A stretch of 64,000 nucleotides of DNA from Alphaproteobacteria bacterium (GCA_044345375.1 JBIJBF010000003.1:18089-82088); one strand, 5' to 3'. Counted from the stretch's first letter, positions 9,248 through 40,446 are shown. Notes: generated from the letters alone by a model not told the origin. A program made the numbers and translations.

Positions 9248-9300
9248 TAGCGGAGTAGAATTGTCATCCTTCTAATTCCCCTGCTATATCTGCCGCTAAG

Positions 9301-9350
9301 AACCACCCCGTCAGGCTTCGCCTGCCACCCCTCTGCAAGAGGGGAATTTT
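9301..9350 (+). repeat. REP-like palindromic intergenic element, copy 1
   Basis: accaccccgtcaggcttcgcctgccacccctctgcaagaggggaatttt contains two short hairpins (caggc-ttc-gcctg and cccctc...gagggg). Near-identical copies occur at 13087, 29357, 29536 and 47632. Confidence 0.8.
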
Positions 9351-10938: not shown

Positions 10939-11177
10939 CGCATCGCATCCATCAATCAGGGTTTTAACTTGCGCCGACGCTAACGCAAAACCGGGCGCTG
11001 TTCAACTGGGTCAACACGCGGTGGCAGCGGTTTGGCGGCCGGTTTTGGCGATGGCTCGGGGTGACGAGCGGTGAAATCTTTAATTTAAAGTCAAAAATTT
11101 GAAACACTATTGACATAAAAACAAAAATTAACAACAATTAAACGTTTATTGTTAACTTTTATTTGTTTAAGGTAATT

Positions 11178-13001
11178 ATGATGAGTTTTAAAGTTCCGAA
11201 TTGGGTTACAAGGGCGGCCTTAAGTTTCGCAACGGTAGCGACGGTTTTCGTTAGTGGTGGTTCAGCGCTTGGGCAGGTGGCGGAGGCACAGCTGAATCCA
11301 GGGGATCTGCCACAGGGTACGACACCAACGTCAGAAATGGTTGAGGTTTCGACGGCGACGGCAGGGAATGCGGCGACGCCAGAGAAGCCTGAGGATGTGA
11401 TCACCGAACAAGCAATCGCAACTTTTGCAACAGATCAAAGGCTGCCAAGTTATGATGTTCAGGTGGTGGATCTGGCGATGACAGAAGTTGCGGCCAAATC
11501 AGTTGTGCAAGAACCCGTGCCGCAAGGGGGGGATATTGGTCAAGAATCAACAGTAATAGAAGAGAGTGGTGCATCCGGTGCAGCCTTATTGGGGGGTGAT
11601 ATTGCGCTTGGTTTGAACACTGGTGCTTCAAACTACAGCCTGCCACCACCAGCATTATCGGCAAAACCGGTTGTTTTGGCGAATAATTCCCAAACAAACA
11701 GTGCGCCCACAGATGTTGTTGAGGGTGTAACTTTTCGTCAACAAGCATTCATAACCCAACCAGAAAATGTTTCCGTAACAAGGTCTCCCGTGGTTACGGG
11801 TTTGGAAACAAAGATAGAGAAGCAGGTTGTTCCAGTATCATACACTGTTACACAACCAGGCGTAATAAGCGAGGTAATAGTCGGTCGGCCGGGTAATTTT
11901 AATGATTTTCCAAAAGCAATACAAGATCTTGCGGGAAAAATTCAGCAAAATGTTAAAAATCCTGATTTAAATACTATAAAAAGATATTTTGAAAACAACA
12001 TTTCGCCGCAAATTCAGATAGATGTTAGTAAGGTTATTGCTGAAGATCCAAGTATAATTAATAAATTAACGCAAGAACTACAATCTAAGCAAACAAAAAT
12101 TATTGTATCAACAGCATCTAAAACAAATTCTATAACAAAATACGAGGAAGTAGATATAATTAATACGATACCTGTGATTGGAGAACTAAAAATAACAAAT
12201 TTAACTACGGAAAAAGATCGAGTTAATTTATCTTGGCAAAACTCAAATATGGTACGATTGGGAGCAGTCGGTTTTGGTCCATATGGGAGTGCTGGGGAAC
12301 GAAATTTTGCTTTTCGCAGTGTGGCCGCAATAGATAATGTTATCTATGACCAAAGGTTTACTGGAATTAATCTTCCAACTGGTGAGCTGGGTGTTGCCGG
12401 ACAGTTGCCCTTAGGCAAGGAAACCACCGCTTTTTGGAGGGTTGGTGCAGATATAGTGGCGCCATTTTCACAAAAAAAGGTAACATCCACGATTCCTTTT
12501 AGCACAGCGCTCTCGATCGAGAATGTCAGCGGGTCTAAGGTTTTTATTGGAATCGAACCTGGATATGCAATTAACCCTAAGCTTACAAGCGGCGCCCAAA
12601 ACTTGACGCAGGCTAAAACGGCCGTTAATGCTGGGTTTGTGTGGAAATTAGGAACCGTTGGTTCTCTTAACGATCTCACCCTCGGAGGATCATTGGGCGA
12701 AATAGGAGAAAGTTTAGGTGCAGGCGGTGGGCGATACATTGAAGTTAATATGAGTGCCGTTTTTGGTGCCGCTGCTTCTGGTTCCTCGGGAAGAACGCCA
12801 TGGGCTAAACGGCAGCAGCAGCAGGCAATACAATTTATACAAGTTAAAATGTTTCCTGAAAACACTTTTGCATATGTTGGGTTTGAGCCTAAACCATTAA
12901 CTGACAAACTAAATACGCCAGAAAAAAAAGATGATATCACAGATATGGAGATGTACCGTATTTACAGCAGTCTGTCTCCTGTGGGCACTGCGAGCAGATA
13001 A
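11178..13001 (+). CDS. Secreted low-complexity surface or outer-membrane protein of unknown function (composition differs from its surroundings)
   Basis: ATG at 11178 preceded by an AAGG ribosome-binding site. Signal-peptide-like N-terminus (SFKVPNWVTRAALSFATVATVFVSGGSALGQVAEA). N-terminal third is rich in A/G/T/V/P. The middle of the gene (about 11880-12350) is strongly AT-rich with an N/K/I-rich translation. C-terminal half is Gly-rich and predicted beta-rich. AT-rich promoter region with TTGACA lies upstream, and a strong terminator follows. Confidence 0.5.
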   Translation: MMSFKVPNWVTRAALSFATVATVFVSGGSALGQVAEAQLNPGDLPQGTTPTSEMVEVSTATAGNAATPEKPEDVITEQAIATFATDQRLPSYDVQVVDLAMTEVAAKSVVQEPVPQGGDIGQESTVIEESGASGAALLGGDIALGLNTGASNYSLPPPALSAKPVVLANNSQTNSAPTDVVEGVTFRQQAFITQPENVSVTRSPVVTGLETKIEKQVVPVSYTVTQPGVISEVIVGRPGNFNDFPKAIQDLAGKIQQNVKNPDLNTIKRYFENNISPQIQIDVSKVIAEDPSIINKLTQELQSKQTKIIVSTASKTNSITKYEEVDIINTIPVIGELKITNLTTEKDRVNLSWQNSNMVRLGAVGFGPYGSAGERNFAFRSVAAIDNVIYDQRFTGINLPTGELGVAGQLPLGKETTAFWRVGADIVAPFSQKKVTSTIPFSTALSIENVSGSKVFIGIEPGYAINPKLTSGAQNLTQAKTAVNAGFVWKLGTVGSLNDLTLGGSLGEIGESLGAGGGRYIEVNMSAVFGAAASGSSGRTPWAKRQQQQAIQFIQVKMFPENTFAYVGFEPKPLTDKLNTPEKKDDITDMEMYRIYSSLSPVGTASR

Positions 13002-13063: not shown

Positions 13064-13086
13064 AAGGGTCTATATTTGTGATGGAC

Positions 13087-13136
13087 AACCACCCCGTCAG
13101 GCTGCGCCTGCCACCCCTCCGCGGGAGGGGAATAGG
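13087..13136 (+). repeat. REP-like element, copy 2
   Basis: accaccccgtcaggctgcgcctgccacccctccgcgggaggggaataggg, sitting between convergent genes. Confidence 0.8.
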
Positions 13137-13168: not shown

Positions 13169-15592
<2,424 letters not shown>

Positions 15593-15600
15593 GGGGGGCG

Positions 15601-16488
15601 GTGATGAACATAAAACGGCTTACGACAGCAGATGTTGGGATATTGGAACAGTATTTGGCGCCCTATCAGGCGGAATGCATGTATATTTGCAGCAATATCA
15701 AAGCTGGCGGCATGGAATATGCGGGCCAGGATTTTCAAGGCGAGTATTTCGGCTGTTTTCGCGGCAGTTCAGAAGATTTGGATGGCGTTTTGGTGCATTA
15801 TTGGAACGGCAACATCATGATGTATGCGTCTGACACCCAAGTGTTAGAGCAACTGGTTGTGTTCTTCAAAACTTACGCAACCCGTCCCGTGGTCGGGGTT
15901 CTTGGCCCTGATAGGCAAGCAGAATATGTGGTGAATAGCCTTGGTCTGCAACATGCGGCCTTCGCGAGTAATCGGAATGAAGGCTTATACGAACTGGATC
16001 TAAAGAATTTGGGGGCGATCAAGCTGCCGAATGATGTTGCTGTTGTCAGCATGCAAGATGTTTCAATGGATTTGTTGCTGCAGTGGCGTCGTGCCTATGC
16101 CATTGAGGCATTGGGGGCAGATAATGACAGCGCTCTTGAAAAACGGGTTGCCGAAGAGGTTGATCGACAGATTCGTGGGCAGGATTGTTGGGTTTTGCTG
16201 GCGGGGGGAGTTCCCGTATCCCTAAGCGGTTTTAATGCGCGCCTAGCAGAGGTGGTGCAGGTGGGACCTGTGTGGACACCGCCAGAGCACCGCAACCAAG
16301 GCTTTGCCCGGCTGTTGTTGGCTTGGGTGTTGGCTCAAGCAAAAACCAAGGGCACCAAAAAGGCGATATTGTTCACCGATACGCCAGCGGGCATCAAAGC
16401 CTATCGCGCGATAGGCTTTGAAAAGATTGGTGAGTACCGTTTGGCTCTGTTGAAAAAGCCTGTTCATTTGGCTGCCCCCGCCGCCTAA
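15601..16488 (+). CDS. GNAT-family N-acetyltransferase
   Basis: The C-terminal half carries a GNAT core (QGFARLLLAWVLAQAKTKGTKKAILFTD...AYRAIGF). The N-terminal domain is of unknown function. Confidence 0.5.
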   Translation: MMNIKRLTTADVGILEQYLAPYQAECMYICSNIKAGGMEYAGQDFQGEYFGCFRGSSEDLDGVLVHYWNGNIMMYASDTQVLEQLVVFFKTYATRPVVGVLGPDRQAEYVVNSLGLQHAAFASNRNEGLYELDLKNLGAIKLPNDVAVVSMQDVSMDLLLQWRRAYAIEALGADNDSALEKRVAEEVDRQIRGQDCWVLLAGGVPVSLSGFNARLAEVVQVGPVWTPPEHRNQGFARLLLAWVLAQAKTKGTKKAILFTDTPAGIKAYRAIGFEKIGEYRLALLKKPVHLAAPAA

Positions 16489-16536
16489 GCTTTAAGGTAG
16501 GCTTAGGCGGCGGGGGATCTCAGCTAAGAAAGGGCG

Positions 16537-18411
16537 TTAACTCCCCTGGCGACGCAGAAAGGCTGGGATTTCCAGATCCTTTGATGGATTGCCAGACGAA
16601 GGGTTGGGGGCAGCGCCCTGTGGAGAGGCGGCTGCGCCACCGTCATTGGCTCCGCCAAAACTGGGCTCAACCCCTGCTGGTTGCCCTGAACCCGCTGGAT
16701 TACGGCCTAAACGTGGGAAAGCCGCGTTGGTAACCCGCTCAAATAGACTGGGAGAGCGCCCGTGCAGATCATCGTTATAGGCTTGTTCGTCATGGTTGCC
16801 TTGGGCTGGCGCTGCCTGCTGATGGGCAGCCGATGGACGTGCACTGCTGGGCATGATGCGCGGTTCGGTTGCGGCGGGTGGGATAAAGGGATCATCCACC
16901 TGCGGCAAGCCGCGCTTAATCGGCGCAACATTGGCCGCGGCTGGTTGGGGCGCAGGGGATGGCCGTTCAGCGGCTTGTCTGCCCTCAGCATAGCCTTGGT
17001 TTTGTGAGCCTTGATTCTGCTGGCCACCAACGATCTCATCCCACCCCTCATCAGCGGCATGCGTGTAGCCAGATTGTGCGGATTCTCCACGGTTTGCCCC
17101 TTCACGATTGGTCTGGGCCACCCGTTCTGCAAAGCCGCTGACCGCACCAGTGTTGGCGGGTTGACGGGCGCCAAAGTCGGGCTGACGCGGTTCATTGGCT
17201 GGACTAGGCGCTGGCGCAGCAGTCTGCCCATGTGCTTGCTCGGGCGGAAAATCGCCGTAAGCACTGGGGCGATAGCCACGGGAAGAGGCGCCGCTGCTGG
17301 GTTGCTGAGACGCCTGCTGTTGCATTTGCGGTTGAAAATTGGGTTGAATGGGGGCGGCGGCTGCAGCTGGCCTGCGGAATGCTGGCGCAACATTGCCCGA
17401 AAAGTCGGTGTCGCCAATCGCACCTGGGCCACGATGGGTGGCCTCAATACCGGTTGCCACCACCGAAATGCGGATTTTGCCCGCCAGTTTTTCATCAAAG
17501 GTGGCCCCAAAGATGATGTTGGCGTTTGGATCCACCTCCTCCCGAATGCGGTTGGCGGCTTGGTCGGCCTCAAACAGGGTCATATCCAACGCGCCGGAAA
17601 CATGAATCAGGATGCCTTTGGCACCGCGCATCGACACATCATCCAACAGGGGGTTGGAAATCGCCGCCTCGGCCGCGCGAATGGCGCGATCAGCCCCATC
17701 GGCCTCACCCGTGCCCATCATCGCCTTGCCCATCTCGCTCATCACCGTGCGGATGTCGGCAAAGTCAAGATTGATCATGCCAGGCATCATAATCAGATCG
17801 GTAATGCCGCGCACCCCCTGGTACAGCACGTTATCGGCGGTGCGGAACGCATCCATAAAGGTGGTTTGTTCGTCGGCAATGCGAAACAGATTTTGGTTGG
17901 GAACGATGATCAGCGTGTCAACAAACTGCTGCATCTCCTCAATCCCAGCCTCAGCCAGGCGCATCCGGTGGGCGCCCTCAAAATGAAACGGCTTGGTGAC
18001 CACCCCAACGGTTAGAATGCCCTGTTCCCGTGCCGCGCGCGCAATTACGGGGGCAGCGCCGGTGCCGGTTCCGCCGCCCATCCCCGCGGTGATAAAGACC
18101 ATGTCGTAGCCCTGAATCGCCTCCAACACATCCACAATCGCCTCCTCAGCCGCCTCACGCCCAACATCAGGGCGGGCACCAGCGCCAAGACCCTTGGTGC
18201 GTTTGGTTCCCAGCTGCATCCGCAAGGGAGCCTTGGATTGCGACAGGGTTTGCGCGTCGGTGTTGGCCACCACAAAGTCCACCCCCTCAAGATTCAGGCG
18301 GATCATGTTGTCAACGGCGTTGGTACCACCGCCACCCACACCAACCACGGCGAGACGAGGTTTCAGCTCACCTTGAGCGTCAGGAATATTCAGATTCAAT
18401 GACATGGACAC
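16537..18411 (-). CDS. ftsZ: Cell division GTPase FtsZ with a long disordered C-terminal linker
   Basis: GGGTGTG tubulin signature, [13 protein letters not shown] and NTDAQ motifs. About 300 aa of P/Q/A-rich linker before the conserved C-terminal peptide ([11 protein letters not shown]), as is usual in alphaproteobacteria. No ftsA or ftsQ adjacent. Confidence 0.9.
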
Positions 18412-18586
18412 GGGCGAAACCCCCTAAAATGATATATGGATGGAAACCAAAAACGGCCAAAGCAGTGTCGTTAAGCCTTTTTAGCAACAGCATTAGTTAT
18501 CCAACGAATTTTGCTGATGTTCAATCGCTTTGTAAAGCAAAAGTCGGATGAAATTTTTTTGAGACCTTTGCGCGGAGGTTTTTAGG

Positions 18587-20344
18587 TTAGAGGTTGCGAC
18601 TAGCCAATTGGACAGAAGCTTTTTCCCACAGCTTTTCTAAAGTGCTACACGGGTACACATAGAAAGCTTTATGGATCTGAGAGATAGCGCTTGAGCTAGG
18701 CAGATTGCGGCCGTATGGCGCGTCGTTATCAGAATCGTCTAAAACTTTGGTCAGCAAACCTAAGCAGACCATAGCTGGGTTTGCTTTCATGTGTTCGTTT
18801 GTATCGCGGTCTTGGGATACAACAATTTCCCATAAATTTTTATAGTCGATCTGAGAAGATGTGGCATTCACTGGCCATGCATCAGCGAAATTACACCCAA
18901 CTGGAGGAACAAAAGCATCATCCCTAAGTTCCTCGTAAGCCTGCGCAAGCAGCTCACGCAAGGCGGTAAAAACCTCTGGTTCCTTTACCCATGGTATAAG
19001 CGTTTCAAGCGCTGTACAGCGAATGATAAAACATTCTGGCTTATCATTGGGATCATCATTTTGGATGACCTCAATCATTGCGCTGCGAACCTCAGGGTGC
19101 TCTCCGTAAGGTATAAGGGATTTTGCTGCTGCTTCGCGAACCCATAAATCATCGTCAGTTTTTAGGGCTTCAATCAGTGCGCTCCTGGCTTCAGGATACT
19201 CTCCGTAAAATTTAAGGGATTCTGCCGCTGCGTGGCGAACACAGAAATCCGGATCGGTTTGCAGTGTCTCAATCAGTGCGCGGGCAGCCCAACGACTAGG
19301 CGTTTTGGGGCGCGAAAAAGCGTGAGCCGCTTGCGTGCGAAGCCAAAGATTCTTACTGTTCTGCATGATGTCAACAAGTACGCATTCAACCCCCGGATAG
19401 GTGTTGTAACGCGTAAGAGCTTTAATCGCTGCTTCGCGCACCGACCAATCCCGATCCTTCTGCGCCGTGTGCAACAGTTGATCGATAGCTTGGTCATCCT
19501 TATCTCCGTAATAAGCAAGGAATTCAACCGCTTCCTTGCGTTCCCACGTATGATACTCTTCTGCGCCTATCCACGGAGCATAATAAGAACCATTCACTAT
19601 GTTGATCAGTTCCTTGATAGCCTGATCGGTATAATCTTCGAACCGCCTAAGGGATTCAGCCACCTTTTCGCGAATCCATGTTTTCTCCTCCCTATTCCCC
19701 AGTATCTTAAGCAATTCTTGGGCAACCAACTTATCTTGAGGTGGGTAAGGCGCAAGAGCGTCAATTACTGCGTCAACCAACAGCGTCTCCTCACGCTCAT
19801 ATTTCAGTATCTCAAGCAGTGCGGGGGTAACCTCAGGATAATTTCTAAGATTTTCAAGCGATCTAGCCACTTCTAAGCGAATCCAGATTTCCTTATCTTT
19901 GTTTTTTAGTATTTCAAGCCGTTCGCTGAGAGACAGATCATCCAGCTTCAAAGGTTCAGTCGTTGTTAGGTTAATTGGGGGGTAAAGCTTTGTGTATGTA
20001 TAATTCATTGTTTTAAGTAGTTCAGGGATGCTTTGAAGATCATTTTGAAAGTTTGCGAAAAATTTGGCCGCTTCCGTGACAGCCGATGACGGTAACGTAG
20101 GGCCAGACTGTTGGATTAAATCCTCAAGATGCTGTTGGTGTTGATTTCTCGGTTTAGCGGGTTCATTCCTTTGATTGTAAAGTTTTGTATATGTATCATT
20201 GAGTGCTTGAAGCAGTTCAGGGATAATCTGAGGATCATTTTGAATTTTTGCGAAAAATTTGGCTGCTTCCGTGATGGCCCATGGCCGCAACTTAGGATCC
20301 GACTGCTGGATTAAAGCCTCAACCTGTTGGTGTTGATTTTTCAT
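18587..20344 (-). CDS. HEAT/PBS-lyase repeat protein (eukaryote-like repeat protein) with an N-terminal tandem duplication
   Basis: Low-GC gene. Repeated E/PEVRxAAxxALxxYG HEAT-like units, and two N-terminal copies of about 65 aa (NQHQQ..TEAAKFFA..IPELL..YTKLY). I prefer the start at 20344, which has an AGGAAAA ribosome-binding site, over the ATG at 20365. Confidence 0.6.
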   Translation of the reverse strand: MKNQHQQVEALIQQSDPKLRPWAITEAAKFFAKIQNDPQIIPELLQALNDTYTKLYNQRNEPAKPRNQHQQHLEDLIQQSGPTLPSSAVTEAAKFFANFQNDLQSIPELLKTMNYTYTKLYPPINLTTTEPLKLDDLSLSERLEILKNKDKEIWIRLEVARSLENLRNYPEVTPALLEILKYEREETLLVDAVIDALAPYPPQDKLVAQELLKILGNREEKTWIREKVAESLRRFEDYTDQAIKELINIVNGSYYAPWIGAEEYHTWERKEAVEFLAYYGDKDDQAIDQLLHTAQKDRDWSVREAAIKALTRYNTYPGVECVLVDIMQNSKNLWLRTQAAHAFSRPKTPSRWAARALIETLQTDPDFCVRHAAAESLKFYGEYPEARSALIEALKTDDDLWVREAAAKSLIPYGEHPEVRSAMIEVIQNDDPNDKPECFIIRCTALETLIPWVKEPEVFTALRELLAQAYEELRDDAFVPPVGCNFADAWPVNATSSQIDYKNLWEIVVSQDRDTNEHMKANPAMVCLGLLTKVLDDSDNDAPYGRNLPSSSAISQIHKAFYVYPCSTLEKLWEKASVQLASRNL

Positions 20345-20648
20345 ATTTTTTCCTGATTTGTTCATAATGCGTAAACAAACTTATTGATAGATTCAATATA
20401 TTACAATACATAATATTTACATATTTAAGGGGCTTATTTGTTTGGCTTGCTGCCCTATAGAAAACCAACCCTGTGGCTGTTGCGGCGGCGTTGGGCTCGT
20501 GGATAGTCGCTAAAGCGTACGAGCAAAGCGCCTTAGCCGCAGTGTTGCAGACGGGGCGGTAAGAATCTTGCGTAATGTCTTGCCAAAGCAGGTCAAGATG
20601 GGGTAACTGTTAAAAAGTTTCCCTAGTTATTGCATTGGATTTTTTTCT

Positions 20649-21458
20649 ATGCCTTTGATTTTTCGTAATTTTCGCGTCTGTGTTTCCGTTATTTCGTTGA
20701 CCGCTGGTCTGTTGGCCTCAGCCTCCTTGGTGGCGCATGCTGATATTCAGCAGGGTTTGACCGCCTATCAGGCGGGGGACTATGCCGCGGCCATTCAGCA
20801 GTTTGAGCCTTTGGCATCTAAGGGCAATCCATCCGCGCAATACGCGCTGGCGGTGATTTATGTTAAGGGGCAGGGGGTTGCGGCCAATCCTGAACGGGCG
20901 GCGATTTTGTTTGAACAGGCGGCCAGCCAAGGGCACACCCCATCCGCCTTGGCGATTGGGGTGATGTATGCGCGTGGGGTTGGGGTGGCGCCTGACTACG
21001 CCAAGGCTCTGGTGTTTTTGGACAAGGCCGCGGCAACGGGCAGCGCGCAGGCCAAAAGCAATTTGGCCGATCTGTACCGTGAGGGGTTGGGCACAACCCG
21101 TGATTTGCGCAGGGCGGCGACCTTGTACCGTGAGGCGGCTGAGGCGGGGGATGCCAACGCGCAGTACAACTATGGAGTGCTAAGCGCCATTGGGATCGGC
21201 ACCACGCAAAATTGGCCTGAGGCTTACGCGTATTTGAGCCTTGCGGCCTATCAGAATTCGGCTGAGGCCAAGGATGTGTTAACCAGCATCACCGGTTTGA
21301 TCAGCCCTGAGGATTTGGCGGCGGGCAAACAGATGGTTGCCACCAAGAATCCTAAAGCGGCTGAGGCTTTTGCTGAGAAGGCTCCGGTTGCGGCTGAGGA
21401 TTTGGCGGCGGGTGAAAAATCGGCCGATGAAAAACCCGCCAAGAAAAAACGCCATTAG
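20649..21458 (+). CDS. Sel1-repeat (TPR-like) secreted protein
   Basis: Signal peptide, then at least five Sel1-like 36-aa repeats (AQYALAVIYVKGQGV..., ALAIGVMYARGVGV..., KSNLADLYREGLG..., QYNYGVLSAIGIG...), followed by a charged C-terminal tail. Confidence 0.7.
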   Translation: MPLIFRNFRVCVSVISLTAGLLASASLVAHADIQQGLTAYQAGDYAAAIQQFEPLASKGNPSAQYALAVIYVKGQGVAANPERAAILFEQAASQGHTPSALAIGVMYARGVGVAPDYAKALVFLDKAAATGSAQAKSNLADLYREGLGTTRDLRRAATLYREAAEAGDANAQYNYGVLSAIGIGTTQNWPEAYAYLSLAAYQNSAEAKDVLTSITGLISPEDLAAGKQMVATKNPKAAEAFAEKAPVAAEDLAAGEKSADEKPAKKKRH

Positions 21459-21496
21459 TTTCCTGCAGAGAGGACGGCAGAATTGGGGATTGGCTA

Positions 21497-22033
21497 TTGA
21501 TGGCGCCGTTGATTCTGCCCTTTGCGGGCAAACAACCCGTGATCGATCCGAACAGCTTTGTGGCGGCAAACGCCAGCGTGATTGGTGACGTGCAAATTGG
21601 CGCGGAAAGCAGCCTGTGGTTTGGGGTGGTGCTGCGCGGCGATGTCAACCGCATTCAAATTGGCCGGCAGACCAACATTCAGGATGGCACCGTGGTGCAT
21701 GTCTCCTCAGGCTCTTTAGGCGTGGTGGCGCGCCCAACCACGATTGGTGATCGGGTTACGGTGGGGCATGCCGCGATTTTGCATGCCTGCGAGCTCCAGG
21801 ATGAGGCCTATGTGGGCATGGGTGCGGTGGTGTTGGATGGCGCGGTGGTGGAAGGCGGCGGCTTTTTGGCGGCTGGCGCTCTGTTAACCTCTGGCAAGGT
21901 GGTGCGGCGCGGCGAGCTGTGGGCCGGCAACCCCGCCAAACTGCTCCGCCCCCTGCGGCCTGAGGAGTCGGCCTTTATCCCCCAATCCGCCGCCCATTAC
22001 TGGCAATTGGCGCTGGCGCATAAAAACGGTTAG
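21497..22033 (+). CDS. Gamma-class carbonic anhydrase / hexapeptide-repeat family protein (YrdA/PaaY-like)
   Basis: The pattern IDPNSFVAANASVIGDVQIGAESSLWFGVVLRGDVNRIQIGRQTNIQDGTVVHV is typical of gamma-CA-like left-handed beta-helix proteins. Confidence 0.8.
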   Translation: MMAPLILPFAGKQPVIDPNSFVAANASVIGDVQIGAESSLWFGVVLRGDVNRIQIGRQTNIQDGTVVHVSSGSLGVVARPTTIGDRVTVGHAAILHACELQDEAYVGMGAVVLDGAVVEGGGFLAAGALLTSGKVVRRGELWAGNPAKLLRPLRPEESAFIPQSAAHYWQLALAHKNG

Positions 22034-22059
22034 GCCGTTAAAGATATCCTACAAGTTGA

Positions 22060-22755
22060 ATGCTTTTTGGTTTACAGGAAAGAATATTTTCGGTTAAAAA
22101 TAATTTACAGGCGGCGCAGGGATGCCGCCAAAGGGTTAACGATGTTGATAAAGGGGGTGGAATGTCGGGTGTGAATGGTGTGGTTGGTTTTAGGGTAGCG
22201 ACTCCAGATAGCAGGACTCTGTCAGATAGTCAGATTCCGTCAGTTCTGAACCTGGTCTTGACTATTGATTATTTGCGCGCGCGACAAGCACAACAAGCTC
22301 AGCGATCCAGCTCTCAATCGAACACCAGCGCTGCAAAGCTGCAACCAGAGCTGCCGTCGTTTTGTGAGGAAGAACTGGCTGTTTATAATCCGCCCATTAA
22401 GGTCACAGATATTCAAGGGCTTTTTACATTCACGCTGAAAAGAGATCCAACCCCCTTTTTTACCATTGCCAATAACGGATATGCGCCAACGGTAGGGAAA
22501 GCGAAAACGCTGGAATTTTTTGATCAAACGAAAACTCTTCATATGACGATAGTGGAGCAAGTATATCAAGAGCCAGTGGTTCATGGTAACACTATACAAC
22601 TTATTGAGTGCCCAAATGGCACTTTGGTGCCGGAGGAGAGGCTAGCAATTTATACTCTGTCGAGTGGCGACAGAGTAGTTGTTATGAATGCTGATGAATT
22701 GACGGTTCAATTTGTGTCTAGCAAAGATTCAGCACTCGCACCACATCAACGATAA
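22060..22755 (+). CDS. Hypothetical protein, low-GC orphan (true start may be the ATG at 22162)
   Basis: Open frame with AT-rich composition and no recognisable motif. Its 3' end overlaps glyS convergently. Confidence 0.35.
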
Positions 22756-24107
22756 AACTCCTGAAAATACCCCGTCAGTTCGCTTAGTGGCAGGCGGGTT
22801 TGGGTCATGCTGTCGCGGTCGCGCAGGGTGACGCTGGCGGGCGATTTTTCTAGGCTTTCAAAGTCGATGGTGATGCACAGCGGCGTGCCGATTTCGTCGT
22901 GACGGCGATAGGCCTTGCCGATATTGCCGGTGTTTTCCAGCAGGATGCGGCCGATGCCCAGTTTTTGCAGGCTGTTCTTCACCTGCTGCGCCAGTTCCAC
23001 CAGTTCAGGCTTGTTGCGCGCCAGCGGGATGACGGCGGCCTTGATCGGCGCCAGATGGCGTTTGAGCTTCAGCACGATACGGGTGCCATCGCCCACCGCC
23101 TCCTCCGTATACGCCTCGCACAACAGGGCCAGCACGCCGCGGTCAACGCCGGCTGACGGTTCGATGACAAAGGGCACCATTTCCGCATTCGCCTCAGGAT
23201 CGCGGTAGGTCAGCTTGGTCACCGAATCGCCGTTGGGCAGCACGCGGGCGGTTAATGCCAACTCCTCAGGCTTTTTGGAGTGCGAGCCAAGGTCAAAATC
23301 GGTGCGGTTGGCGATCCCCTCCAACTCCTCCATCCCATGGGGAAAGCGGTAGAGGATGTCGGTGGTGGCCTTGGAATAGTGCGACAAATCCTCAAGTGCT
23401 GCCACAAACACCTCAAGATTTTCAAGGGTGAGCCCCTGTTCCTGCCACCAGGCCAGGCGGCGTTCCACCCATTCGGCATGCGCCGCCTCATCCACCCCTG
23501 GCATCACGAAATATTCCAGCTCCATCTGCTCAAATTCCCGCACGCGGAAGATAAAGTTGCGCGGGGTGATTTCGTTGCGAAAGGCCTTGCCGATTTGGGC
23601 GATGCCAAAGGGCAATTTGCGGCTGGTGGCATCCAACACATTTTTAAAGTTGGTGAAAATGCCCTGCGCGGTTTCGGGGCGCAGATAGGCAAAGGAATCC
23701 TCGTCGCTCAGGGGGCCAACCGTGGTTTTGAACATCAGGTTAAACGGGCGCGGCTCGGTTAAGTCTTTCGAGCCGCATTTGTCGCATTTGCCCTCTTTAA
23801 TATGGTCGGCGCGCCAACGGCTTTGGCAGTTTTTGCAATCGACCATCGGGTCAACAAAGGTGGATTCGTGGCCAGAATGGCGCAGCACCAGCCGGTTGGT
23901 CAGGATCGAGGCATCCAACCCCTCAACATCATCACGCTCATACACCATCGCCCGCCACCAGGCAGCCTTGAGGTTGTTTTTCAGCTCAACCCCAATCGGG
24001 CCGTAGTCATACACCCCCTGCAGCCCGCCATAAATTTCAGAACCTTGGAAGATGAAACCACGGCGTTTGCACAGGGCAACCAAATCTTGCATGGAGGTGG
24101 CGGGCAT
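22746..24107 (-). CDS. glyQS: Glycine--tRNA ligase, homodimeric alpha2 (GlyQS, class II) type
   Basis: N-terminus [40 protein letters not shown] plus a zinc-knuckle insertion ([12 protein letters not shown]...CDKCGS) and a C-terminal anticodon-binding domain. This is the single-chain 450-aa form rather than the bacterial glyQ+glyS pair. Confidence 0.85.
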
Positions 24108-24218
24108 TTGTAAAGAACCTTTGGGCTGTCGATCAGAATAAGAACAGCCTAGGGTAACAGATAGACTTTGCAGAACAAGCCGTTTTTTGTTAGAAAGAAG
24201 GGCAATTTAGGAAAAATA

Positions 24219-25397
24219 ATGATGGCAGATTTATACCCAGCCAAGCTGGCGTTGGCGGATGGCACCGTGTTGCGCGGTACTGGCTTTGGCGCGCAGGGCC
24301 TGGCGGTGGGGGAGCTGTGTTTTCACACCGGCATGACCGGGTATCAGGAAACCCTTAGCGATCCATCCTTTGCCGGGCAGATCATCACTTTTACCAGCCC
24401 GCATATCGGCAATGTTGGTTGCAATACGGACGACAATGAGTCTGGCCGGCCGCGCGCGCTGGCGATGATTGCGCGGCAGCTGCCGACACAGCCCGCCAAT
24501 TATCGGGCGGAGGAAAGCCTGACCGGCTGGCTGCAACGCCATGGCCTGATCGGCCTGGCGGGGGTGGATACCCGTGCGCTGACCCTGATGATCCGTGATG
24601 CGGGGGCGGCGCCCCATGCGGCGATTTGGCATGGGGAGGTGGAGTCTGAGCCGGCGGATACGCTGTTGGTGCAACGTGCCGCCAGCTGGAATGGCCTGAA
24701 CGGGCTGGATCTGGCGATCACCGTGACCACCAATCAGGCCTATGATTGGCCGAGAACTGGGGGGGATGCTGCGGGCGTTTGGGGTGAGGCGGTGGCACCA
24801 GCCAACGGGCTGACCGTGGTGGTGATCGATTTTGGGGTGAAGGCCAACATGCTGCGCCATCTGGCTGGCCTTGGCTGCCGCGTGCGGGTGCTGCCGGCCA
24901 ATGCAACGGTTGAGCAGGTGATGGCTGAGGCGCCCTCTGGGGTGTTGCTGTCCAACGGCCCGGGCGATCCGGCGGCCACTGCGGCCTATGCGGCGCCGAT
25001 GATTCGCGGGTTGATCGAACGGCGGGTGCCGATTCTGGGCATTTGTTTGGGGCACCAGCTGCTGGCGCTGGCTTTTGGCGCGCGCACCTATAAATTGCCG
25101 CTGGGGCATCGCGGTGCCAACCACCCGGTGCGGCTAAGCGGCCATCAGGTGGGCATTACCAGCCAGAACCACGGCTTTGCGGTTGAGGCGGCCAGCTTAA
25201 CGGAGCGCGGGCTGAGGGTAACGCAGACGTCGTTGTTCGATGGCACGGTTGAGGCGTTTGACCACCCAACCCTGCCGATTTTGTCGGTGCAGTACCATCC
25301 TGAGGCTGCCCCTGGCCCGTTGGAAGGCGGGCGGTTGTTTGCCGATTTTGTCACCCTGATGCAACGCCATCGGGCGGGAGCTGCCCATGCCGCTTAG
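24219..25397 (+). CDS. carA: Carbamoyl-phosphate synthase small (glutaminase) subunit
   Basis: MMADLYPAKLALADGTVLRG start with an AGGAAAAA ribosome-binding site, and a class-I glutamine amidotransferase triad (GICLGHQLL ... H..E). No carB follows. Confidence 0.9.
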   Translation: MMADLYPAKLALADGTVLRGTGFGAQGLAVGELCFHTGMTGYQETLSDPSFAGQIITFTSPHIGNVGCNTDDNESGRPRALAMIARQLPTQPANYRAEESLTGWLQRHGLIGLAGVDTRALTLMIRDAGAAPHAAIWHGEVESEPADTLLVQRAASWNGLNGLDLAITVTTNQAYDWPRTGGDAAGVWGEAVAPANGLTVVVIDFGVKANMLRHLAGLGCRVRVLPANATVEQVMAEAPSGVLLSNGPGDPAATAAYAAPMIRGLIERRVPILGICLGHQLLALAFGARTYKLPLGHRGANHPVRLSGHQVGITSQNHGFAVEAASLTERGLRVTQTSLFDGTVEAFDHPTLPILSVQYHPEAAPGPLEGGRLFADFVTLMQRHRAGAAHAA

Positions 25398-26280
25398 GCT
25401 GTTCGCGATGCTGTTGTTGGCGGTCTTGACCGGCTGTGGTTCGGATGGCAAGTCCGTGTTGGCACCGGTGGTGGATGGGCTGGCGGGCAGTGGCAAGCGG
25501 GTGGCGACGACCAGTCATCCGGCGGCCAGCAAGTCTGTATCTGGGAGCGTTGGACAAGATAGCAGGGCGGTCGCTGTGGAGCCCATCAGCACGACGGCAA
25601 CCACCGATAGCGCGAGGCCAACCATCGAAAAAGTGGAAAGCAAGCCGTTAGCCAAGCCGGTGGTGTTGGCGCCGCTGCCCCCCACCAAAACCCAGCCGAC
25701 CAAAATCAAGGGCACGCCCGCCCCACCGTTGGAGGAGCATTCGGGTGCAGAAAAAGCGGTGGATGCCGAGCAAAAGGCGGTCAGCTTAGCCCCCAATGTG
25801 CCGACTGAGAATGAGCCGCAGACGGTGGCGGCTCAACCCCTCCCCAAAAAAATGGCAGAGGTGAAACCCGCCTCCACCACCGCGCCCCAGCTGTATTGGC
25901 CGCTTAAGGGGCGGCTGTTGTCAGGCTATGGCCGCCAGGATGAGGGGCGGTTTAACGATGGGTTGAACATTGCGGCGGCGGCTGGCACCCCGATTCAGGC
26001 GGCTGCGGATGGCAAGGTGGTGTATGTGGGCAACGACGTGCCGGCCTATGGCAATTTGGTGCTGCTGGAGCATGCCAACGGCTGGGTAACCGCCTATGGC
26101 CATATGGAGGCGGTGTATGTCAAGCGCGGCGAATCGGTGCGGCACGGTGTGATGATCGGGCGGGTGGGCGCCACCGGCAAGGTTGCTGAGGCGCAGCTGC
26201 ATTTTCAACTGCGCCAAGGCAAACAACCAGTCGACCCCGCGCCCTTCCTGCCTAAGATGACGGTGTCGGCGGCGGGGTAG
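25387..26280 (+). CDS. M23-family peptidoglycan endopeptidase lipoprotein (NlpD/LytM-like)
   Basis: LTGC lipobox, a P/A/T-rich linker and a C-terminal M23 domain (GLNIAAAAGTPIQAAADGKVVYVG...GHMEAVYVKRGESV...HFQLR). Confidence 0.8.
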   Translation: MPLRLFAMLLLAVLTGCGSDGKSVLAPVVDGLAGSGKRVATTSHPAASKSVSGSVGQDSRAVAVEPISTTATTDSARPTIEKVESKPLAKPVVLAPLPPTKTQPTKIKGTPAPPLEEHSGAEKAVDAEQKAVSLAPNVPTENEPQTVAAQPLPKKMAEVKPASTTAPQLYWPLKGRLLSGYGRQDEGRFNDGLNIAAAAGTPIQAAADGKVVYVGNDVPAYGNLVLLEHANGWVTAYGHMEAVYVKRGESVRHGVMIGRVGATGKVAEAQLHFQLRQGKQPVDPAPFLPKMTVSAAG

Positions 26281-29356: not shown

Positions 29357-29590
29357 TTAATTCCCCTCCCGCGGAGGGGTGGCAGGCGAAGCCTGACGGG
29401 GTGGTTGTTTTAAAAGTTTGTCAGGCGCAGCCTGCCTCCTTTAGATATTTGTCAGGCACAGCCTGACGGGGTGGTTCTTATCTTGGTGGTGTGATGCGCT
29501 GCAGGCAGCACCATGTTTGAATTGTTTGTTACAAGGACCACCCCGCCCTTCGGGCACCCCTCCGCAGGAGGGGAATTTAAGGGGAATTAA
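29357..29590. repeat. Cluster of REP-like elements: one inverted full copy, two partial inverted copies and a variant direct copy
   Basis: 29357-29406 is the reverse complement of the REP consensus. 29418-29440 and 29449-29477 are partial copies. 29536-29577 is a variant in which gcccttcgggc replaces the central hairpin. The cluster lies between the mgtE start and the rnpB 3' end. Confidence 0.75.
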
Positions 29591-31705: not shown

Positions 31706-32179
31706 ATGACCAAAGATAGCAAAATTAAAAAAAATCAAACAAAAACGACTGAAGTTAAGCCAAAGCAAAAAACGCCAAAACCATTGCAGGTTGCAAAAGA
31801 AAATACTGTACCACCTGATCCTGATGTTGACCATGGTGGCAGCCAGCTTAGCCAAGAACTGAACGAATTGTTGGTTGCGGTGGCCAAGGGGCAGCCGTTA
31901 TTGGCGGGTGATAAGATGGGCGAGGTGGCGACGGTGTATCCAACCCTGGACCAACGATTAAAGGTGATGACGATGCTGTTAAAACAACAGGAGCAGGAAA
32001 TGGGCGACATGGTAGAAAAGGATGGCGGTGATGGACGAAAAAAAGCCAAAGCCGCGAAAATCCGCGCGGGCTATAGCGCCGATGAACTTCGCGAACTGCT
32101 CAGCCGCCATTTGGCTGAGCTGTCAACCAAAAAGCCGGCGGGCAAAACTGCTGGCCAGCCTGAGCGATCAGGAGGTTGA
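31706..32179 (+). CDS. Lys-rich small protein, possible small terminase or DNA-binding subunit; first gene of the phage-derived cluster
   Basis: 157 aa. K-rich N-terminus (MTKDSKIKKNQTKTTEVKPKQKTPKP) and a central coiled-coil. The 3' 158 nt overlap the terminase ORF out of frame, and an A7 run sits at the junction. Confidence 0.4.
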   Translation: MTKDSKIKKNQTKTTEVKPKQKTPKPLQVAKENTVPPDPDVDHGGSQLSQELNELLVAVAKGQPLLAGDKMGEVATVYPTLDQRLKVMTMLLKQQEQEMGDMVEKDGGDGRKKAKAAKIRAGYSADELRELLSRHLAELSTKKPAGKTAGQPERSGG

Positions 32180-33395
32180 ACGGCTGTATTACAGCTGGGC
32201 CTTTTGGGCGCGCCCTGAACAGCTGCCGCCGGCCGGTTTGTGGCGGGTGTGGCTGATTCTGGCGGGACGGGGCTGGGGCAAAACCCGAACCGGCGCCGAA
32301 TGGGTTAGCTGGCAGGTGCAAACCGGGCAGGCCAGCCGTATCGCCCTGGTCGCCGCAACGCTGCATGAGGCGCGCAGCGTGATGGTTGAGGGGGCCAGCG
32401 GCTTGTTAAGCTGCAGCCCGCCGTGGAACCGCCCGCGCTATGAGCCATCGAAACGGCTGCTGACCTGGCCCAACGGCGCGGTGGCGCAGTGTTTTGGCGC
32501 TGAGGAGCCGGACAGCCTGCGCGGACCGCAGTTTGATGCGGCCTGGTGCGACGAATTGGCCAAATGGCCCCGTCAGGGTGCCTGGGATCAGCTGATGTTC
32601 GGGCTGCGTTTGGGGCAAAACCCGCAGGTGGTGGCAACGACCACGCCCCAGCCCGTACCGCTGATCGAAAGCCTGGCAAAAAAGGCTGAGGTGGTGGTGA
32701 CAAGGGGCAGAACGCTGGACAACCGTGCCAATCTGGCGGCGGGATTTTTGAGCGAATTGGAGCAAACCTATGCCGGCACTTGGCTGGCTGCGCAGGAGTT
32801 GGAGGGCGAGCTGCTTAGCGATGCGCCAGACACCCTGTGGCCCGCTAAGATTTTGGCGGAGTCGGTGATCGAGCCGGCGTCTGCGCCGCCGATGGTGAAA
32901 ACGCTGCTGGCGATCGACCCTGCCGTAACCAGCCATAGCAGCAGCGACGAAACCGGGCTGGTGGTGGTGGGATTGGGGGAGGATGGGGTGTTTTATGTGC
33001 TGCAAGATGCCAGCGACCGGCTGCGGCCAGAGGTGCTGGTGGAACGGGTGGCGGCGCTGGTTGCCCTGCACAGCATTGGTCAGGTGGTGGTTGAGGTCAA
33101 TCAGGGCGGCGACTGGCTGCTGGAGGCCTTGAATAGTGCAACCTTGGATGCCGTGGTCCAGCCGGTGCGCGCGGTTCAGGACAAATGGACGCGGGCGGAA
33201 CCGGTGGCCATGCTGTATGCGCAGGGTCGGGTGAAGCATGTGGGCCGTCTGCCAACGCTGGAGGCGCAGCTGCGGGCCTGTCGTCGTGGGACTAGGAGCG
33301 GAGGAATGGATCGGGTGGATGCGCTGGTTTGGGCGATTCGCAGTTTGAAACAGGCCAGCGTTAAGCAGCGCGGGTTTGCGGTTCGGGTGGTTTAG
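32022..33395 (+). CDS. Phage terminase large subunit (GTA g2-like TerL)
   Basis: LLASLSDQEVERLYYSWAFWARPEQLPP...WRVWLILAGRGWGKTRTGAEW is the N-terminal signature shared by alphaproteobacterial GTA-type large terminases. An ATPase Walker region and a C-terminal nuclease-like DxD pattern are present. The exact start is uncertain (32022 or 32082). Confidence 0.8.
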   Translation: MAVMDEKKPKPRKSARAIAPMNFANCSAAIWLSCQPKSRRAKLLASLSDQEVERLYYSWAFWARPEQLPPAGLWRVWLILAGRGWGKTRTGAEWVSWQVQTGQASRIALVAATLHEARSVMVEGASGLLSCSPPWNRPRYEPSKRLLTWPNGAVAQCFGAEEPDSLRGPQFDAAWCDELAKWPRQGAWDQLMFGLRLGQNPQVVATTTPQPVPLIESLAKKAEVVVTRGRTLDNRANLAAGFLSELEQTYAGTWLAAQELEGELLSDAPDTLWPAKILAESVIEPASAPPMVKTLLAIDPAVTSHSSSDETGLVVVGLGEDGVFYVLQDASDRLRPEVLVERVAALVALHSIGQVVVEVNQGGDWLLEALNSATLDAVVQPVRAVQDKWTRAEPVAMLYAQGRVKHVGRLPTLEAQLRACRRGTRSGGMDRVDALVWAIRSLKQASVKQRGFAVRVV

Positions 33396-33703
33396 TTGGT
33401 GGATTCATCCAACTCTTGCAACAGCTTGTCTGCATCCTGCCTGCCAAGGATGGTCATGATTTCTGCGGTATCGTCAATCATGCGATAATAGATGCTATGA
33501 GATCCGCAAATTCTGCGCCGATATCCTTGGCGGATATAATCCACAGATGGATAAGAAAGAGGGTGTTTTGCAATTTTTTCAAAAGCATCAAACATTTTTT
33601 GAAGATAATAATCAGCTTTTTGTAATCCGTACTGCACAAAACCCCATTGATAAATTGTTACAAGATCTTCTTCGGCCTGTTTTTTAAGTTTATACGTTCC
33701 CAT
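33392..33703 (-). CDS. parE: Type II toxin ParE/RelE family
   Basis: 103 aa with RelE/ParE-fold features (YRRRICGSHSIYYRMIDD..IMTILGRQD). Low GC. Overlaps the upstream antitoxin gene. Confidence 0.75.
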   Translation of the reverse strand: MGTYKLKKQAEEDLVTIYQWGFVQYGLQKADYYLQKMFDAFEKIAKHPLSYPSVDYIRQGYRRRICGSHSIYYRMIDDTAEIMTILGRQDADKLLQELDESTN

Positions 33704-33944
33704 GAAAACCTAATTTCTTCAACGCCTCGGCCTTAATGTCTTCGGCTGTCATGGTACTAAATTCTCTGTTTTCCGCACTGATCAGTTTTGAACGAATATA
33801 ATCGATCTCGGTCGTTTCCTTTAACCTTGCGTGACGAATCAGAGCGTTAACGACTTCACTTTTGTTGAAATATTCTTGTTTTTCAACCTGCTGTTTAAGC
33901 CAATCATCATTGGGGGTGGTGAGAGAAATGCTTTGTCTTGTCAT
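33690..33944 (-). CDS. parD: Type II antitoxin ParD (RHH/CopG fold)
   Basis: The 84-aa protein starting MTRQSISLTTPNDDWLKQQVEKQEYFNKSEVVNALIRHARLKE is a typical ParD ribbon-helix-helix. AGGAG ribosome-binding site 9 nt upstream. Overlaps the parE start by 14 nt. Confidence 0.75.
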   Translation of the reverse strand: MTRQSISLTTPNDDWLKQQVEKQEYFNKSEVVNALIRHARLKETTEIDYIRSKLISAENREFSTMTAEDIKAEALKKLGFHGNV

Positions 33945-34036
33945 GATCCTGCTCCTGTAAACAACGATATCTGGTTCTATTATGCACCATATACGCACCA
34001 CACACAATATTTATCAACCTTATCAAGGAAAATTCC

Positions 34037-35236
34037 ATGAAAGACTGGATTCAACGACGTTTTTTAAGCCGTTCTGCGGATGCTGTGCCAGCGGCCAAGG
34101 CTAGCAGGGCGGGGCATTTGATGGTTTATGGCCAGCTGAATCAGCCGCGCTGGACACCGCGGCGCTACGACATGCTGGCTGAGGAGGGGTATCGGCGCAA
34201 CGTGGTGGCCTTTCGCTGCATTAAGGAGATTGCGCAGGGGGCGGCGGGGGTTCCCTGGATTTTGTATCAGGGCGATCAGGAGCTGGTTGAGCACCCGTTG
34301 CTGCGGCTGCTGACCAACCCCAACCCCACGCAGGGGCAGGCCAGTTGGGCTGAGATGCTGTACAGCAACCTGCTGATTGCCGGCAATGCCTATATCGAGG
34401 CGGTGGGGGATGGTGACCAGCTGCCGCGCGAGCTTTGGGTGCTGCGCCCCGATCGGATGACGGTGGTGGCGGGGATGTACGGCGTGCCAAAGGCTTATGA
34501 ATACCAGATCAACGGCCAAGTCTACCGCTGGTCGGCGGATGTGGCCAATGGCGCATCCCCCATCCTGCATCTGAAAAGCTTTCATCCGTTGGATGATTGG
34601 TACGGCCTGAGCCCGATGGAGGCGGCGGCCTATGCGATTGATCAGCACAACGAGGCATCCAAATGGAACCAATCGCTGTTGCAAAACGGCGCACGCCCCA
34701 GCGGCGCGCTGGTGGTTCAGATGAGCAAGGATGGGGATGCCAGCCTGAGCAGCGAACAGTTTGATCGGCTGAAAGCGCAGCTGGATGAGCAGTACAGCGG
34801 CCCTGTCAACGCGGGCAGACCGATGCTGTTGGAGGGCGGGTTGCAGTGGGTGGACATGATGATGAACCCCAGGGATTTGGATTACCTGAACGCCCGCTAT
34901 GCCGCTGCGCGTGAGATCGCCCTGGCCTTTGGCTATCCCCCCATGCTGTTGGGGATTCCGGGCGACAACACCTATAACAACCAGCGCGAGGCAAGGGTGG
35001 CGTTGTGGGAGCAAACCATCCTGCCGTTGGTGCACCAGCTGCGCGACGGGCTGAACAACTGGCTGCTGCGGCAGGCTTACGGGGTGGGGGAGGCGCCGTT
35101 GCGGATTGATTACGATCCAGATGCCATCAGCGCCCTGTCGCTGCGCCGTGAACAGCTGTGGGACAAACTGAACAAGGCGGAGTTTCTTAGCACCGATGAG
35201 AAGCGTCAGGCTGCTGGGTATGGGGTGATGGGCTAG
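34037..35236 (+). CDS. Phage portal protein, HK97 family
   Basis: 399 aa with portal-family motif spacing (WILYQGDQELVEHPLLRLL..., LHLKSFHPLDDWYGLSPMEAA..., PMLLGIPGDNTYNN) and the expected position after the terminase. Confidence 0.8.
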   Translation: MKDWIQRRFLSRSADAVPAAKASRAGHLMVYGQLNQPRWTPRRYDMLAEEGYRRNVVAFRCIKEIAQGAAGVPWILYQGDQELVEHPLLRLLTNPNPTQGQASWAEMLYSNLLIAGNAYIEAVGDGDQLPRELWVLRPDRMTVVAGMYGVPKAYEYQINGQVYRWSADVANGASPILHLKSFHPLDDWYGLSPMEAAAYAIDQHNEASKWNQSLLQNGARPSGALVVQMSKDGDASLSSEQFDRLKAQLDEQYSGPVNAGRPMLLEGGLQWVDMMMNPRDLDYLNARYAAAREIALAFGYPPMLLGIPGDNTYNNQREARVALWEQTILPLVHQLRDGLNNWLLRQAYGVGEAPLRIDYDPDAISALSLRREQLWDKLNKAEFLSTDEKRQAAGYGVMG

Positions 35237-35317
35237 CTGGGCTTGGAGTTGTTTGGGTTTTTTGGGGCTTGGTGGAGACAATCTGCCAAGTCTTTTTTTG
35301 TTTCTTAAGGGGATGTT

Positions 35318-35953: not shown

Positions 35954-35956
35954 AGG

Positions 35957-36475: not shown

Positions 36476-36486
36476 GGGGTCAAAAC

Positions 36487-38409: not shown

Positions 38410-38432
38410 CCATCATCCAGAAAAGAAAGCGT

Positions 38433-39131: not shown

Positions 39132-39163
39132 CACTTTTATCAAAACAACAAAGGAATGATGAG

Positions 39164-40387: not shown

Positions 40388-40402
40388 TTGTTAAGTGCAT
40401 AG

Positions 40403-40446
40403 GGGGGGGCTGAGCAGCGTTTTGCTTGGCCCCCTTTTTGTTTTTT
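40403..40446 (+). terminator. Hairpin plus T-tract immediately downstream of the capsid gene
   Basis: GGGGGC-(16-nt loop)-GCCCCC followed by tttttgtttttt. It sits between the capsid stop (40387) and the next gene start (40462). Confidence 0.6.

Follow-up and report, generated by a model that had tools for sequence, protein, structure and literature searches.

Bacterial conflict systems have HEAT repeats as one of their repeat modules (PMC7159879), and the Legionella effectors LpnE, EnhC and LceB are Sel1-like repeat proteins (PMC10868440). Both repeat types are encoded, together with an orphan gene and a gene of the gamma carbonic anhydrase (gamma-CA) type, at positions 18587–22755 of a 64,000-nucleotide stretch of DNA from an uncultured alphaproteobacterium (GCA_044345375.1, JBIJBF010000003.1:18089–82088); this whole stretch is referred to here as the window. 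The initial annotation took the interval for an islet of low-GC, eukaryote-like repeat proteins plus an orphan, hinting at a host-associated lifestyle. We find instead that the HEAT and orphan genes are two independent, compositionally foreign and species-restricted accessory genes among conserved core genes, and that each is polymorphic between strains in a discrete internal cassette.

Several described systems invite comparison. With the phycobilisome (PBS)-lyase-type HEAT proteins CpcE/F, which appear among its fold matches, the HEAT protein shares a repeat of 31–33 residues bearing the signature D-x-x-VR-x-x-AA-x-x-L; it differs from them in its duplicated three-helix amino terminus, its carboxy-terminal 110 residues, its low GC content and its hypervariable cassette. 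A second resemblance is to the bacterial STAND (NACHT/NB-ARC) and TIR conflict proteins: the natural proteins most closely related to the repeat region include NACHT–HEAT, TIR–HEAT and kinase–HEAT architectures, and the PADLOC model HEAT-ARM_XIII is matched (2.2e-11). Only the repeat module is shared, however, and Pfam and PADLOC detect no nucleoside triphosphatase (NTPase; NACHT/NB-ARC), TIR, nuclease or other effector domain in the HEAT protein or its neighbours. The Sel1 protein, with its four repeats, stands alongside Sel1-like proteins such as Legionella LpnE, EnhC and LceB, Helicobacter Hcp, E. coli EsiB, alphaproteobacterial ExoR, AlgK and MotX; it carries an amino-terminal export signal as do Hcp and ExoR, and gives strong sequence matches to Sel1 proteins of solved structure; it differs from the known members in apparently having no close orthologue, a native GC content and an invariant sequence, and in lying outside the variable component of the locus. 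AT-rich, lineage-specific orphan open reading frames (ORFans) and strain-variable genes are a general concept in bacterial populations. The genes described here likewise combine low GC content, a lack of homologues, a position between core genes and alternative alleles at a fixed slot, but what is exchanged is a segment within a gene whose ends are conserved, not the presence or absence of a whole gene.

Results

Discrete cassettes within the HEAT and orphan genes

The HEAT gene occupies 18587–20365 on the minus strand and encodes 592 residues (585 for those gene callers that choose M8 as the start); the orphan gene, on the plus strand, ends at 22755 and has been read from either 22060 or 22162. 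Both open reading frames, as well as the two between them, lie where the initial annotation had placed them. Our strain comparison draws on 11 short metagenome contigs (L001, L082–L090 and L118) with the same gene order and with flanks 97–100% identical to the window, and the evidence for the alleles spans independent samples and several assemblers and sources (ENA, Logan, JGI and NCBI).

Two discrete alleles of the HEAT gene are distinguished by a hypervariable cassette at 19461–19709 (minus strand, codons 220–302), which holds about 2.5 repeats and a 17-residue aromatic loop. Between the window and contigs L084 and L001, 83 of approximately 250 nucleotides differ here (synonymous divergence, dS, 0.74; nonsynonymous divergence, dN, 0.41), against a dS of 0.003 and a dN of 0.006 in the remainder of the gene. 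The cassette contains a single codon-sized, in-frame indel and no stop codon. Identity is retained at 20 of 29 hydrophobic positions but at only 18 of the 53 others (Fisher P = 0.003); with hydrophobic positions kept while others are replaced, the fold of the cassette appears to be retained. The window holds no second copy of the cassette. A diversity-generating retroelement was considered as a source of variation and rejected, there being no template copy in the window and no reverse transcriptase among the genes scanned.

In the orphan gene, the constant amino-terminal part (22162–22354, plus strand; residues 1–64) is 100% identical at the nucleotide level between alleles A (that of the window) and B, whereas the carboxy-terminal 130 residues of allele B (L086–L089) are replaced, leaving a protein identity of about 25% (proportion of synonymous differences, pS, 0.71, which is saturated; of nonsynonymous differences, pN, 0.54). 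The breakpoints of allele B are exact, at 22354/22355 and 22745/22746, the right-hand one being the stop codon of the neighbouring glycyl-tRNA synthetase gene (glyRS). A third and shorter allele, C (L090, GCA_041443065.1), is replaced from about 22181 onward. Every allele of both genes retains an open reading frame; by chance, this would be expected with a probability of 4e-4 to 1e-3 for each allele of the orphan and of 6e-15 for the HEAT gene. All four combinations of HEAT alleles 1 and 2 with orphan alleles A and B are found (1A in the window, 2A in L084, 1B in L087 and 2B in L086), which indicates that homologous recombination shuffles the two loci, some 2.6 kb apart.

Substitution patterns set the HEAT gene apart from its surroundings: its whole-gene ratio of nonsynonymous to synonymous divergence (omega) is 0.73–1.32, compared with 0.05–0.36 for ftsZ, gamma-CA, glyRS, carA and M23. 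Outside the cassette, nonsynonymous changes number 7 against 1 synonymous (14 against 3 in L087). Relative to L084, L086 and L087, dS along the locus is a mosaic, with values of 0–0.016 in Sel1, most of HEAT and the orphan amino terminus and of 0.05–0.10 in the adjacent stretch 21497–25397, with the gamma-CA-like gene, glyRS and carA, a pattern suggestive of a local sweep, or of recent recombination, across the HEAT–Sel1 segment.

The HEAT protein belongs to the prokaryotic PBS type

Profile searches against Pfam and NCBIfam bear out the repeat-domain calls of the initial annotation for HEAT and Sel1 alike. For the HEAT protein the Pfam families are HEAT_2 (2.7e-34, 117.7 bits, cut-off 27.7), HEAT_PBS (2.3e-15, 55.7 bits, cut-off 20.9) and HEAT (47.2 bits, cut-off 23.5). 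The protein is modular, formed by an amino-terminal tandem duplication, a PBS-type HEAT solenoid (approximately residues 140–480) and a carboxy-terminal stretch of 110 residues without assignment. The duplication (19982–20342, minus strand) comprises two three-helix units of about 65 residues (8–72 and 73–137) whose gene copies, 19982–20150 and 20177–20342, are 81% identical in nucleotides; AlphaFold2 places their helices at residues 4–22, 28–41 and 47–64 and at residues 73–87, 93–104 and 112–127. The model is helical throughout, with a mean predicted local distance difference test score (pLDDT) of 70 that exceeds 85 at residues 280–430 and falls below 50 at 483–592, and it renders residues 262–273, inside the variable cassette, as a disordered loop. 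Structure searches with Foldseek against the PDB returned generic HEAT/ARM folds only (karyopherins, AP complexes and CpcE/F; template modelling scores 0.2–0.4).

A word-indexed search of 5.8e9 proteins retrieved 5 clusters at 91–100% identity, followed by generic HEAT arrays at 23–34%, a number of which also carry a NACHT, TIR or kinase domain. The closest sequence matches with solved structures are alphaRep proteins (E = 1e-19), which were designed from consensus repeats of the prokaryotic PBS-HEAT family. With prokaryotic PBS-type repeats, and nearest relatives of bacterial architecture, the protein does not fit the label ‘eukaryote-like’ that the initial annotation had given it. Searches of phage genomes and IMG/VR viral contigs gave nothing for the HEAT protein or the orphan; in plasmid collections the HEAT protein matched only generic HEAT arrays of cyanobacteria and Streptomyces, the orphan nothing, and family scans with PADLOC and PHROGs yielded nothing specific. 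Assignment as a phycobilin lyase or NblB was rejected on score (CpcE 41.4, CpcF 22.6 and NblB 21.5 bits, against NCBIfam cut-offs of 330, 220 and 300, respectively).

Extent, leader and relatives of the orphan gene

The 231-residue product first proposed for the orphan is not conserved. Its reading, from 22060, crosses a T-run at 22064–22068 whose length varies between 5 and 6 T from strain to strain; this one-base change breaks the frame in L084 and L088. The ATG at 22162 (197 residues) has a ribosome-binding site, GGGGGTGG, upstream, is preceded by AAAGGGGGTGG and is picked by three gene callers; taken with the frame break, this makes a product of 197 residues starting at 22162 the most likely one. 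All three allele classes share one stop codon, and the gene and the 3′ end of glyRS overlap there by 10 nt.

Upstream of this start, a leader or promoter region of 128 nt (22034–22161, plus strand) is kept in all alleles. Apart from the T-run it is unchanged in 5 aligned contigs, and it is retained even in the allele-C contig L090, where nearly the whole coding region is replaced. It includes a perfectly conserved GC hairpin at 22110–22129 (GGCGGCGCAGGGATGCCGCC). In a search for RNA elements, Rfam gave no match within 15000–26000, and shuffled sequence folds as well as the leader does (z = 0.11).

Neither Pfam nor NCBIfam offers a match for the orphan, the Pfam search being blank even at E ≤ 10, and an exhaustive HMMER search of 1.84e9 representative proteins recovered only the orphan itself, allele B and 3 weak matches. 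One of these, P0073, is a DUF7507/DUF11 immunoglobulin-like repeat protein whose repeats each weakly resemble orphan residues 112–178. Assignment of the carboxy terminus to DUF11/DUF7507 was rejected, since the likeness to P0073 is a weak, multi-stretch one in phmmer and BLASTP (E = 1.8e-5) with no Pfam match, and is to be read as a lead. A low-confidence structure prediction places a helix at residues 22–48, within the constant part, and scattered strands in the carboxy-terminal half; the variable part (22355–22755, plus strand) is predicted, at low confidence, to be rich in beta structure.

Two separate low-GC insertions among core genes

The gene order is ftsZ (16537–18411, minus strand), HEAT, Sel1 (20649–21458, plus strand, 269 residues), gamma-CA-like (21497–22033, plus strand, 178 residues), orphan and glyRS (22746–24107, minus strand), with ftsZ and glyRS as the left-hand and right-hand core neighbours. 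Low GC had been ascribed to both repeat genes and the orphan. Judged by GC at third codon positions (GC3) against 50 ordinary open reading frames of the window (mean 0.683, s.d. 0.054; window GC 56.6%), this is true of HEAT (GC 0.456, GC3 0.433, z = −4.7) and the orphan (GC 0.451, GC3 0.404, z = −5.2) but not of Sel1, which is normal (GC 0.575, GC3 0.637, z = −0.9). The HEAT gene is 45.6% GC and not about 42% as first given; the gamma-CA-like gene (GC 0.620, GC3 0.721, z = +0.7) is of normal composition, as had been noted. The low-GC genes show a periodicity (GC1 > GC2) typical of coding sequence.

Because Sel1 and the gamma-CA-like gene are native in GC and stand between HEAT and the orphan, the latter represent two separate low-GC insertions and not a single islet. 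Further low-GC spots at 11163–13001 and 33392–34007 indicate that low-GC, lineage-specific genes are sprinkled through the chromosome and not gathered. The first of these spots, a 612-residue orphan, is lower in GC than anything else in the window (GC3 0.34, z = −6.4); it has an amino-terminal hydrophobic, signal-like leader and is without a Pfam, PADLOC or PHROG match. The second is a pair (GC 0.39–0.41) of a ParE-family toxin and its upstream partner.

HEAT and the orphan occur in a single species-level lineage, itself seen in metagenomes only; they are species-restricted and foreign in composition, not ubiquitous genes of matched GC in free-living relatives. As to signs of mobile elements, the window has no tRNA gene, no direct repeats lie beside either low-GC gene, and no integrase was present among the window genes scanned. 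The region between the divergent HEAT and Sel1 genes (20366–20648), described initially as AT-rich promoter DNA, is 42% GC overall and AT-rich at its two ends only, with GC fractions of 0.24 (20366–20445), 0.56 (the middle 135 bp, 20446–20580) and 0.37 (20581–20648). Promoter-like matches within it are weak and no more numerous than in shuffled sequence.

The genes between the two insertions are of a different character. The Sel1 protein (PF08238, 4.3e-27, 94 bits, cut-off 30.7; 4 repeats) has a Sec-type leader, judged by eye (…LVAHA|DIQQ), and is probably periplasmic. Its amino-acid sequence is 100% identical in all 8 metagenome contigs that carry it (dN = 0). No close orthologue was found, the best match reaching 43% over a partial length, but repeat words overwhelmed the word-based search, which missed even the query itself, and this negative is a weak one; a comparison with metagenome contigs recovered no further strains (best match 42%), and Sel1 proteins of soil and freshwater metagenomes are 30–43% identical to it. 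Specific assignments as ExoR, AlgK, MotX or MerG were rejected (40.5, 54.9, 42 and 49 bits against NCBIfam cut-offs of 450, 700, 330 and 350).

The gamma-CA-like protein matches NF050158 (6.1e-45, 153 bits, below the equivalog cut-off of 250), PaaY (104 bits), CaiE (94 bits) and Hexapep (48 bits). To judge from its sequence it is a left-handed beta-helix (LbH) protein of the gamma-CA/PaaY/CaiE group. Among strains its omega is 0.05–0.16. The gene begins 38 nt downstream of Sel1, and the two are probably co-transcribed.

Among the core neighbours, the glyRS is of the dimeric type (glyQS, or eukaryote–archaeal-like) and not the tetrameric GlyQ/GlyS. Adjoining ftsZ on its other side is a gene for a GNAT acetyltransferase (15601–16488; GC 0.51, GC3 0.54, z = −2.7), which may be an older acquisition.

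Gene content of the window

The envelope genes of the window are uppS-cdsA-dxr-rseP-bamA-ompH-lpxD-fabZ-lpxA, which cover lipopolysaccharide, Bam and the 1-deoxy-D-xylulose 5-phosphate pathway. Further genes include gpmI, carA, ybeY-phoH, mgtE, TrcR, glnA, pyrD and nuoJ-N (complex I), together with birA, ddl-ftsQ, der, mutY and a type IV prepilin peptidase. This repertoire looks like that of a free-living alphaproteobacterium. The IMG identifiers of the samples are close in number to that of a Lake Mendota bin, and a freshwater source is probable. In GTDB, the best FtsZ matches among those listed are to Rhodospirillales-type genomes at 72–78%, and none of the genomes listed shares the gene order; relatives no closer than this among the matches listed point to a poorly represented lineage.

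The division cluster is split: at 57505–61211 der (engA), and not ftsA-ftsZ, comes after ddl-ftsQ, while ftsZ is found by itself at a distance of 40 kb; we saw no ftsA anywhere in the window. By comparison, 57 of the 80 other alphaproteobacterial ftsZ loci examined have ddl less than 10 kb away. With ddl-ftsQ displaced by 40 kb and HEAT directly upstream of ftsZ, we infer that HEAT sits at a rearrangement breakpoint.

Other features of the window stand on their own. A cluster of normal GC at 32022–45864 encodes HK97-type head and tail functions, several of its genes being without a Pfam match; it comprises a large terminase (32022–33395), a head–tail connector (35318–35953), an S78 prohead protease (38433–39131), a major capsid protein (39164–40387) and a GH108 lysozyme (43533–44069), and looks like a gene-transfer-agent-like element or a domesticated prophage amid core genes. 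The low-GC ParE-family pair at 33392–34007 follows directly after its terminase gene. An F1-type ATPase alpha/beta-family subunit gene (13169–14839) stands alone between the low-GC 612-residue orphan and radC, away from other atp (or fli) genes. A dispersed intergenic repeat of about 50–64 nt with two GC-rich hairpins (…CCGTCAGGCTGCGCCTGCCACCCCTCCGCGGGAGGGGAAT) occurs in both orientations at 9284–9347, 13070–13133, 29359–29409, 29435–29480, 29555–29583 and 47633–47681, and resembles repetitive extragenic palindromic (REP) sequences or miniature inverted-repeat transposable elements (MITEs).

Discussion

We lean, by a modest degree, towards reading the HEAT and orphan products as fast-diversifying binding proteins whose polymorphism is held by a variable biotic partner. 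The HEAT protein would then be a cytoplasmic alpha-solenoid binding scaffold, with the central repeats and loop (residues 220–302) forming its recognition surface. The orphan may be a two-part protein, in which the constant amino-terminal helix anchors or oligomerises and the putatively beta-rich carboxy terminus serves as an exchangeable binding domain. Diversifying or frequency-dependent selection would keep both genes polymorphic, and the partner might as well be a host or a grazer as a phage or mobile element. Sel1 and the gamma-CA-like protein would be ordinary bystanders, the first an adaptor exported by Sec to the periplasm, the second an LbH enzyme. The hypervariability of the cassettes points to an antagonistic or recognition role of some sort, and to that extent agrees with the intuition behind the initial annotation.

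Several observations weigh against the reading as binding proteins. Within the HEAT cassette, omega does not exceed 1 (0.56), and relaxed constraint together with recombinational import of a divergent allele would yield the same numbers without positive selection. The alleles are few (2 for HEAT and 3 for the orphan) and come from about 11 short metagenome contigs, which can be strain consensus sequences. The AlphaFold2 model of the orphan (pLDDT 38) is unusable. No signal peptide is visible in either protein, a judgement made by eye only, and searches of defence-system families gave no match beyond the generic HEAT-ARM model of PADLOC.

Of the alternatives, the one that fares best, although we consider it improbable, is that HEAT and the orphan are functionless or decaying ORFans, AT-rich phage or mobile DNA that drifts near-neutrally and whose cassettes are neutral recombinational imports. 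The low GC content, the absence of homologues, the lack of a usable orphan fold and an omega of about 1 outside the cassette, with the excess of nonsynonymous changes given above (7 to 1, and 14 to 3 in L087), are all as such drift would have it. Yet long frames stay open in all alleles despite saturated synonymous divergence in AT-rich sequence, the one indel is in frame and hydrophobic core positions are preferentially kept; the solenoid is confidently predicted, the ribosome-binding site of the orphan is good and its leader conserved, and no phage relatives were found for either gene.

That HEAT, Sel1 and the orphan are eukaryote-like effectors, secreted by a type IV or type I route and acting on a protist or animal host of an intracellular or otherwise host-associated bacterium, is in our view a distinctly poor prospect. 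Sel1-like repeat proteins do include the Legionella effectors LpnE, EnhC and LceB, and HEAT and the orphan are lineage-specific, low in GC and fast evolving, like many effectors. The scrambled gene order, with its split division and cell wall (dcw) cluster and lone ATPase gene, recalls the scrambling that is common in host-associated Alphaproteobacteria, and the FtsZ proteins of some Holosporales and Rickettsia (67–71%) come only slightly below the best listed matches (72–78%). Against this, the HEAT repeats are of the prokaryotic PBS type, and Sel1, which has a Sec leader, is normal in GC and shows no amino-acid variation at all, fits a housekeeping adaptor of the periplasm and is the least effector-like of the three. 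The 64-kb window, with its approximately 55 genes, encodes no part of a type IV, III, VI or I secretion system, the type IV prepilin peptidase apart, and no ankyrin, leucine-rich repeat (LRR), F-box or U-box gene was seen there; the window is moreover 56.6% GC and densely coding, with full sets of envelope, respiration and biosynthesis genes.

Far less credible is a lineage-specific accessory role in cell division, with HEAT co-transcribed with ftsZ and occupying the usual place of ftsA. HEAT does directly precede ftsZ, with both genes on one strand and a gap of 175 nt between them, and ftsA is beside neither ftsQ nor ftsZ in the window; but such a gene would be expected to be native in GC, to be strongly constrained and to have orthologues in related genera, none of which is true of HEAT, the gap holds a promoter-like site, and no HEAT gene is near ftsZ in any relative listed. 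Assembly artefacts, in the form of chimaeric contigs of different species, can be dismissed almost entirely: all comparison sequences are short metagenome contigs, but two to four independent samples and three assembly pipelines yield each allele with the same breakpoints, between flanks 97–100% identical to the window and with frames preserved, so the cassettes are not chimaeras.

Returning to HEAT and the orphan as binding proteins, one could go further and propose that they are the recognition components of a conflict or partner-recognition mechanism not yet described: an allelic ‘specificity locus’ on a PBS-HEAT solenoid, without an NTPase or enzymatic effector, whose discrete cassettes are swapped by homologous recombination under frequency-dependent selection. 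We regard this extension as a long shot. On present evidence this is not a new type of system: HEAT is a PBS-HEAT protein, Sel1 one of the Sel1 proteins and the orphan an AT-rich ORFan. The internal-cassette polymorphism of HEAT and the orphan is the main new result, and a modestly interesting one.

As to lifestyle, the locus counsels caution, because the domain names HEAT and Sel1 are by themselves no sign of host association: here one protein is invariant, of native GC and probably periplasmic, and the other is built from a prokaryotic type of repeat. If the polymorphism reflects selection, HEAT and the orphan mark where this uncultured alphaproteobacterium meets its antagonists, and the two genes would then be handy strain markers with which to follow the turnover of alleles in metagenome time series.

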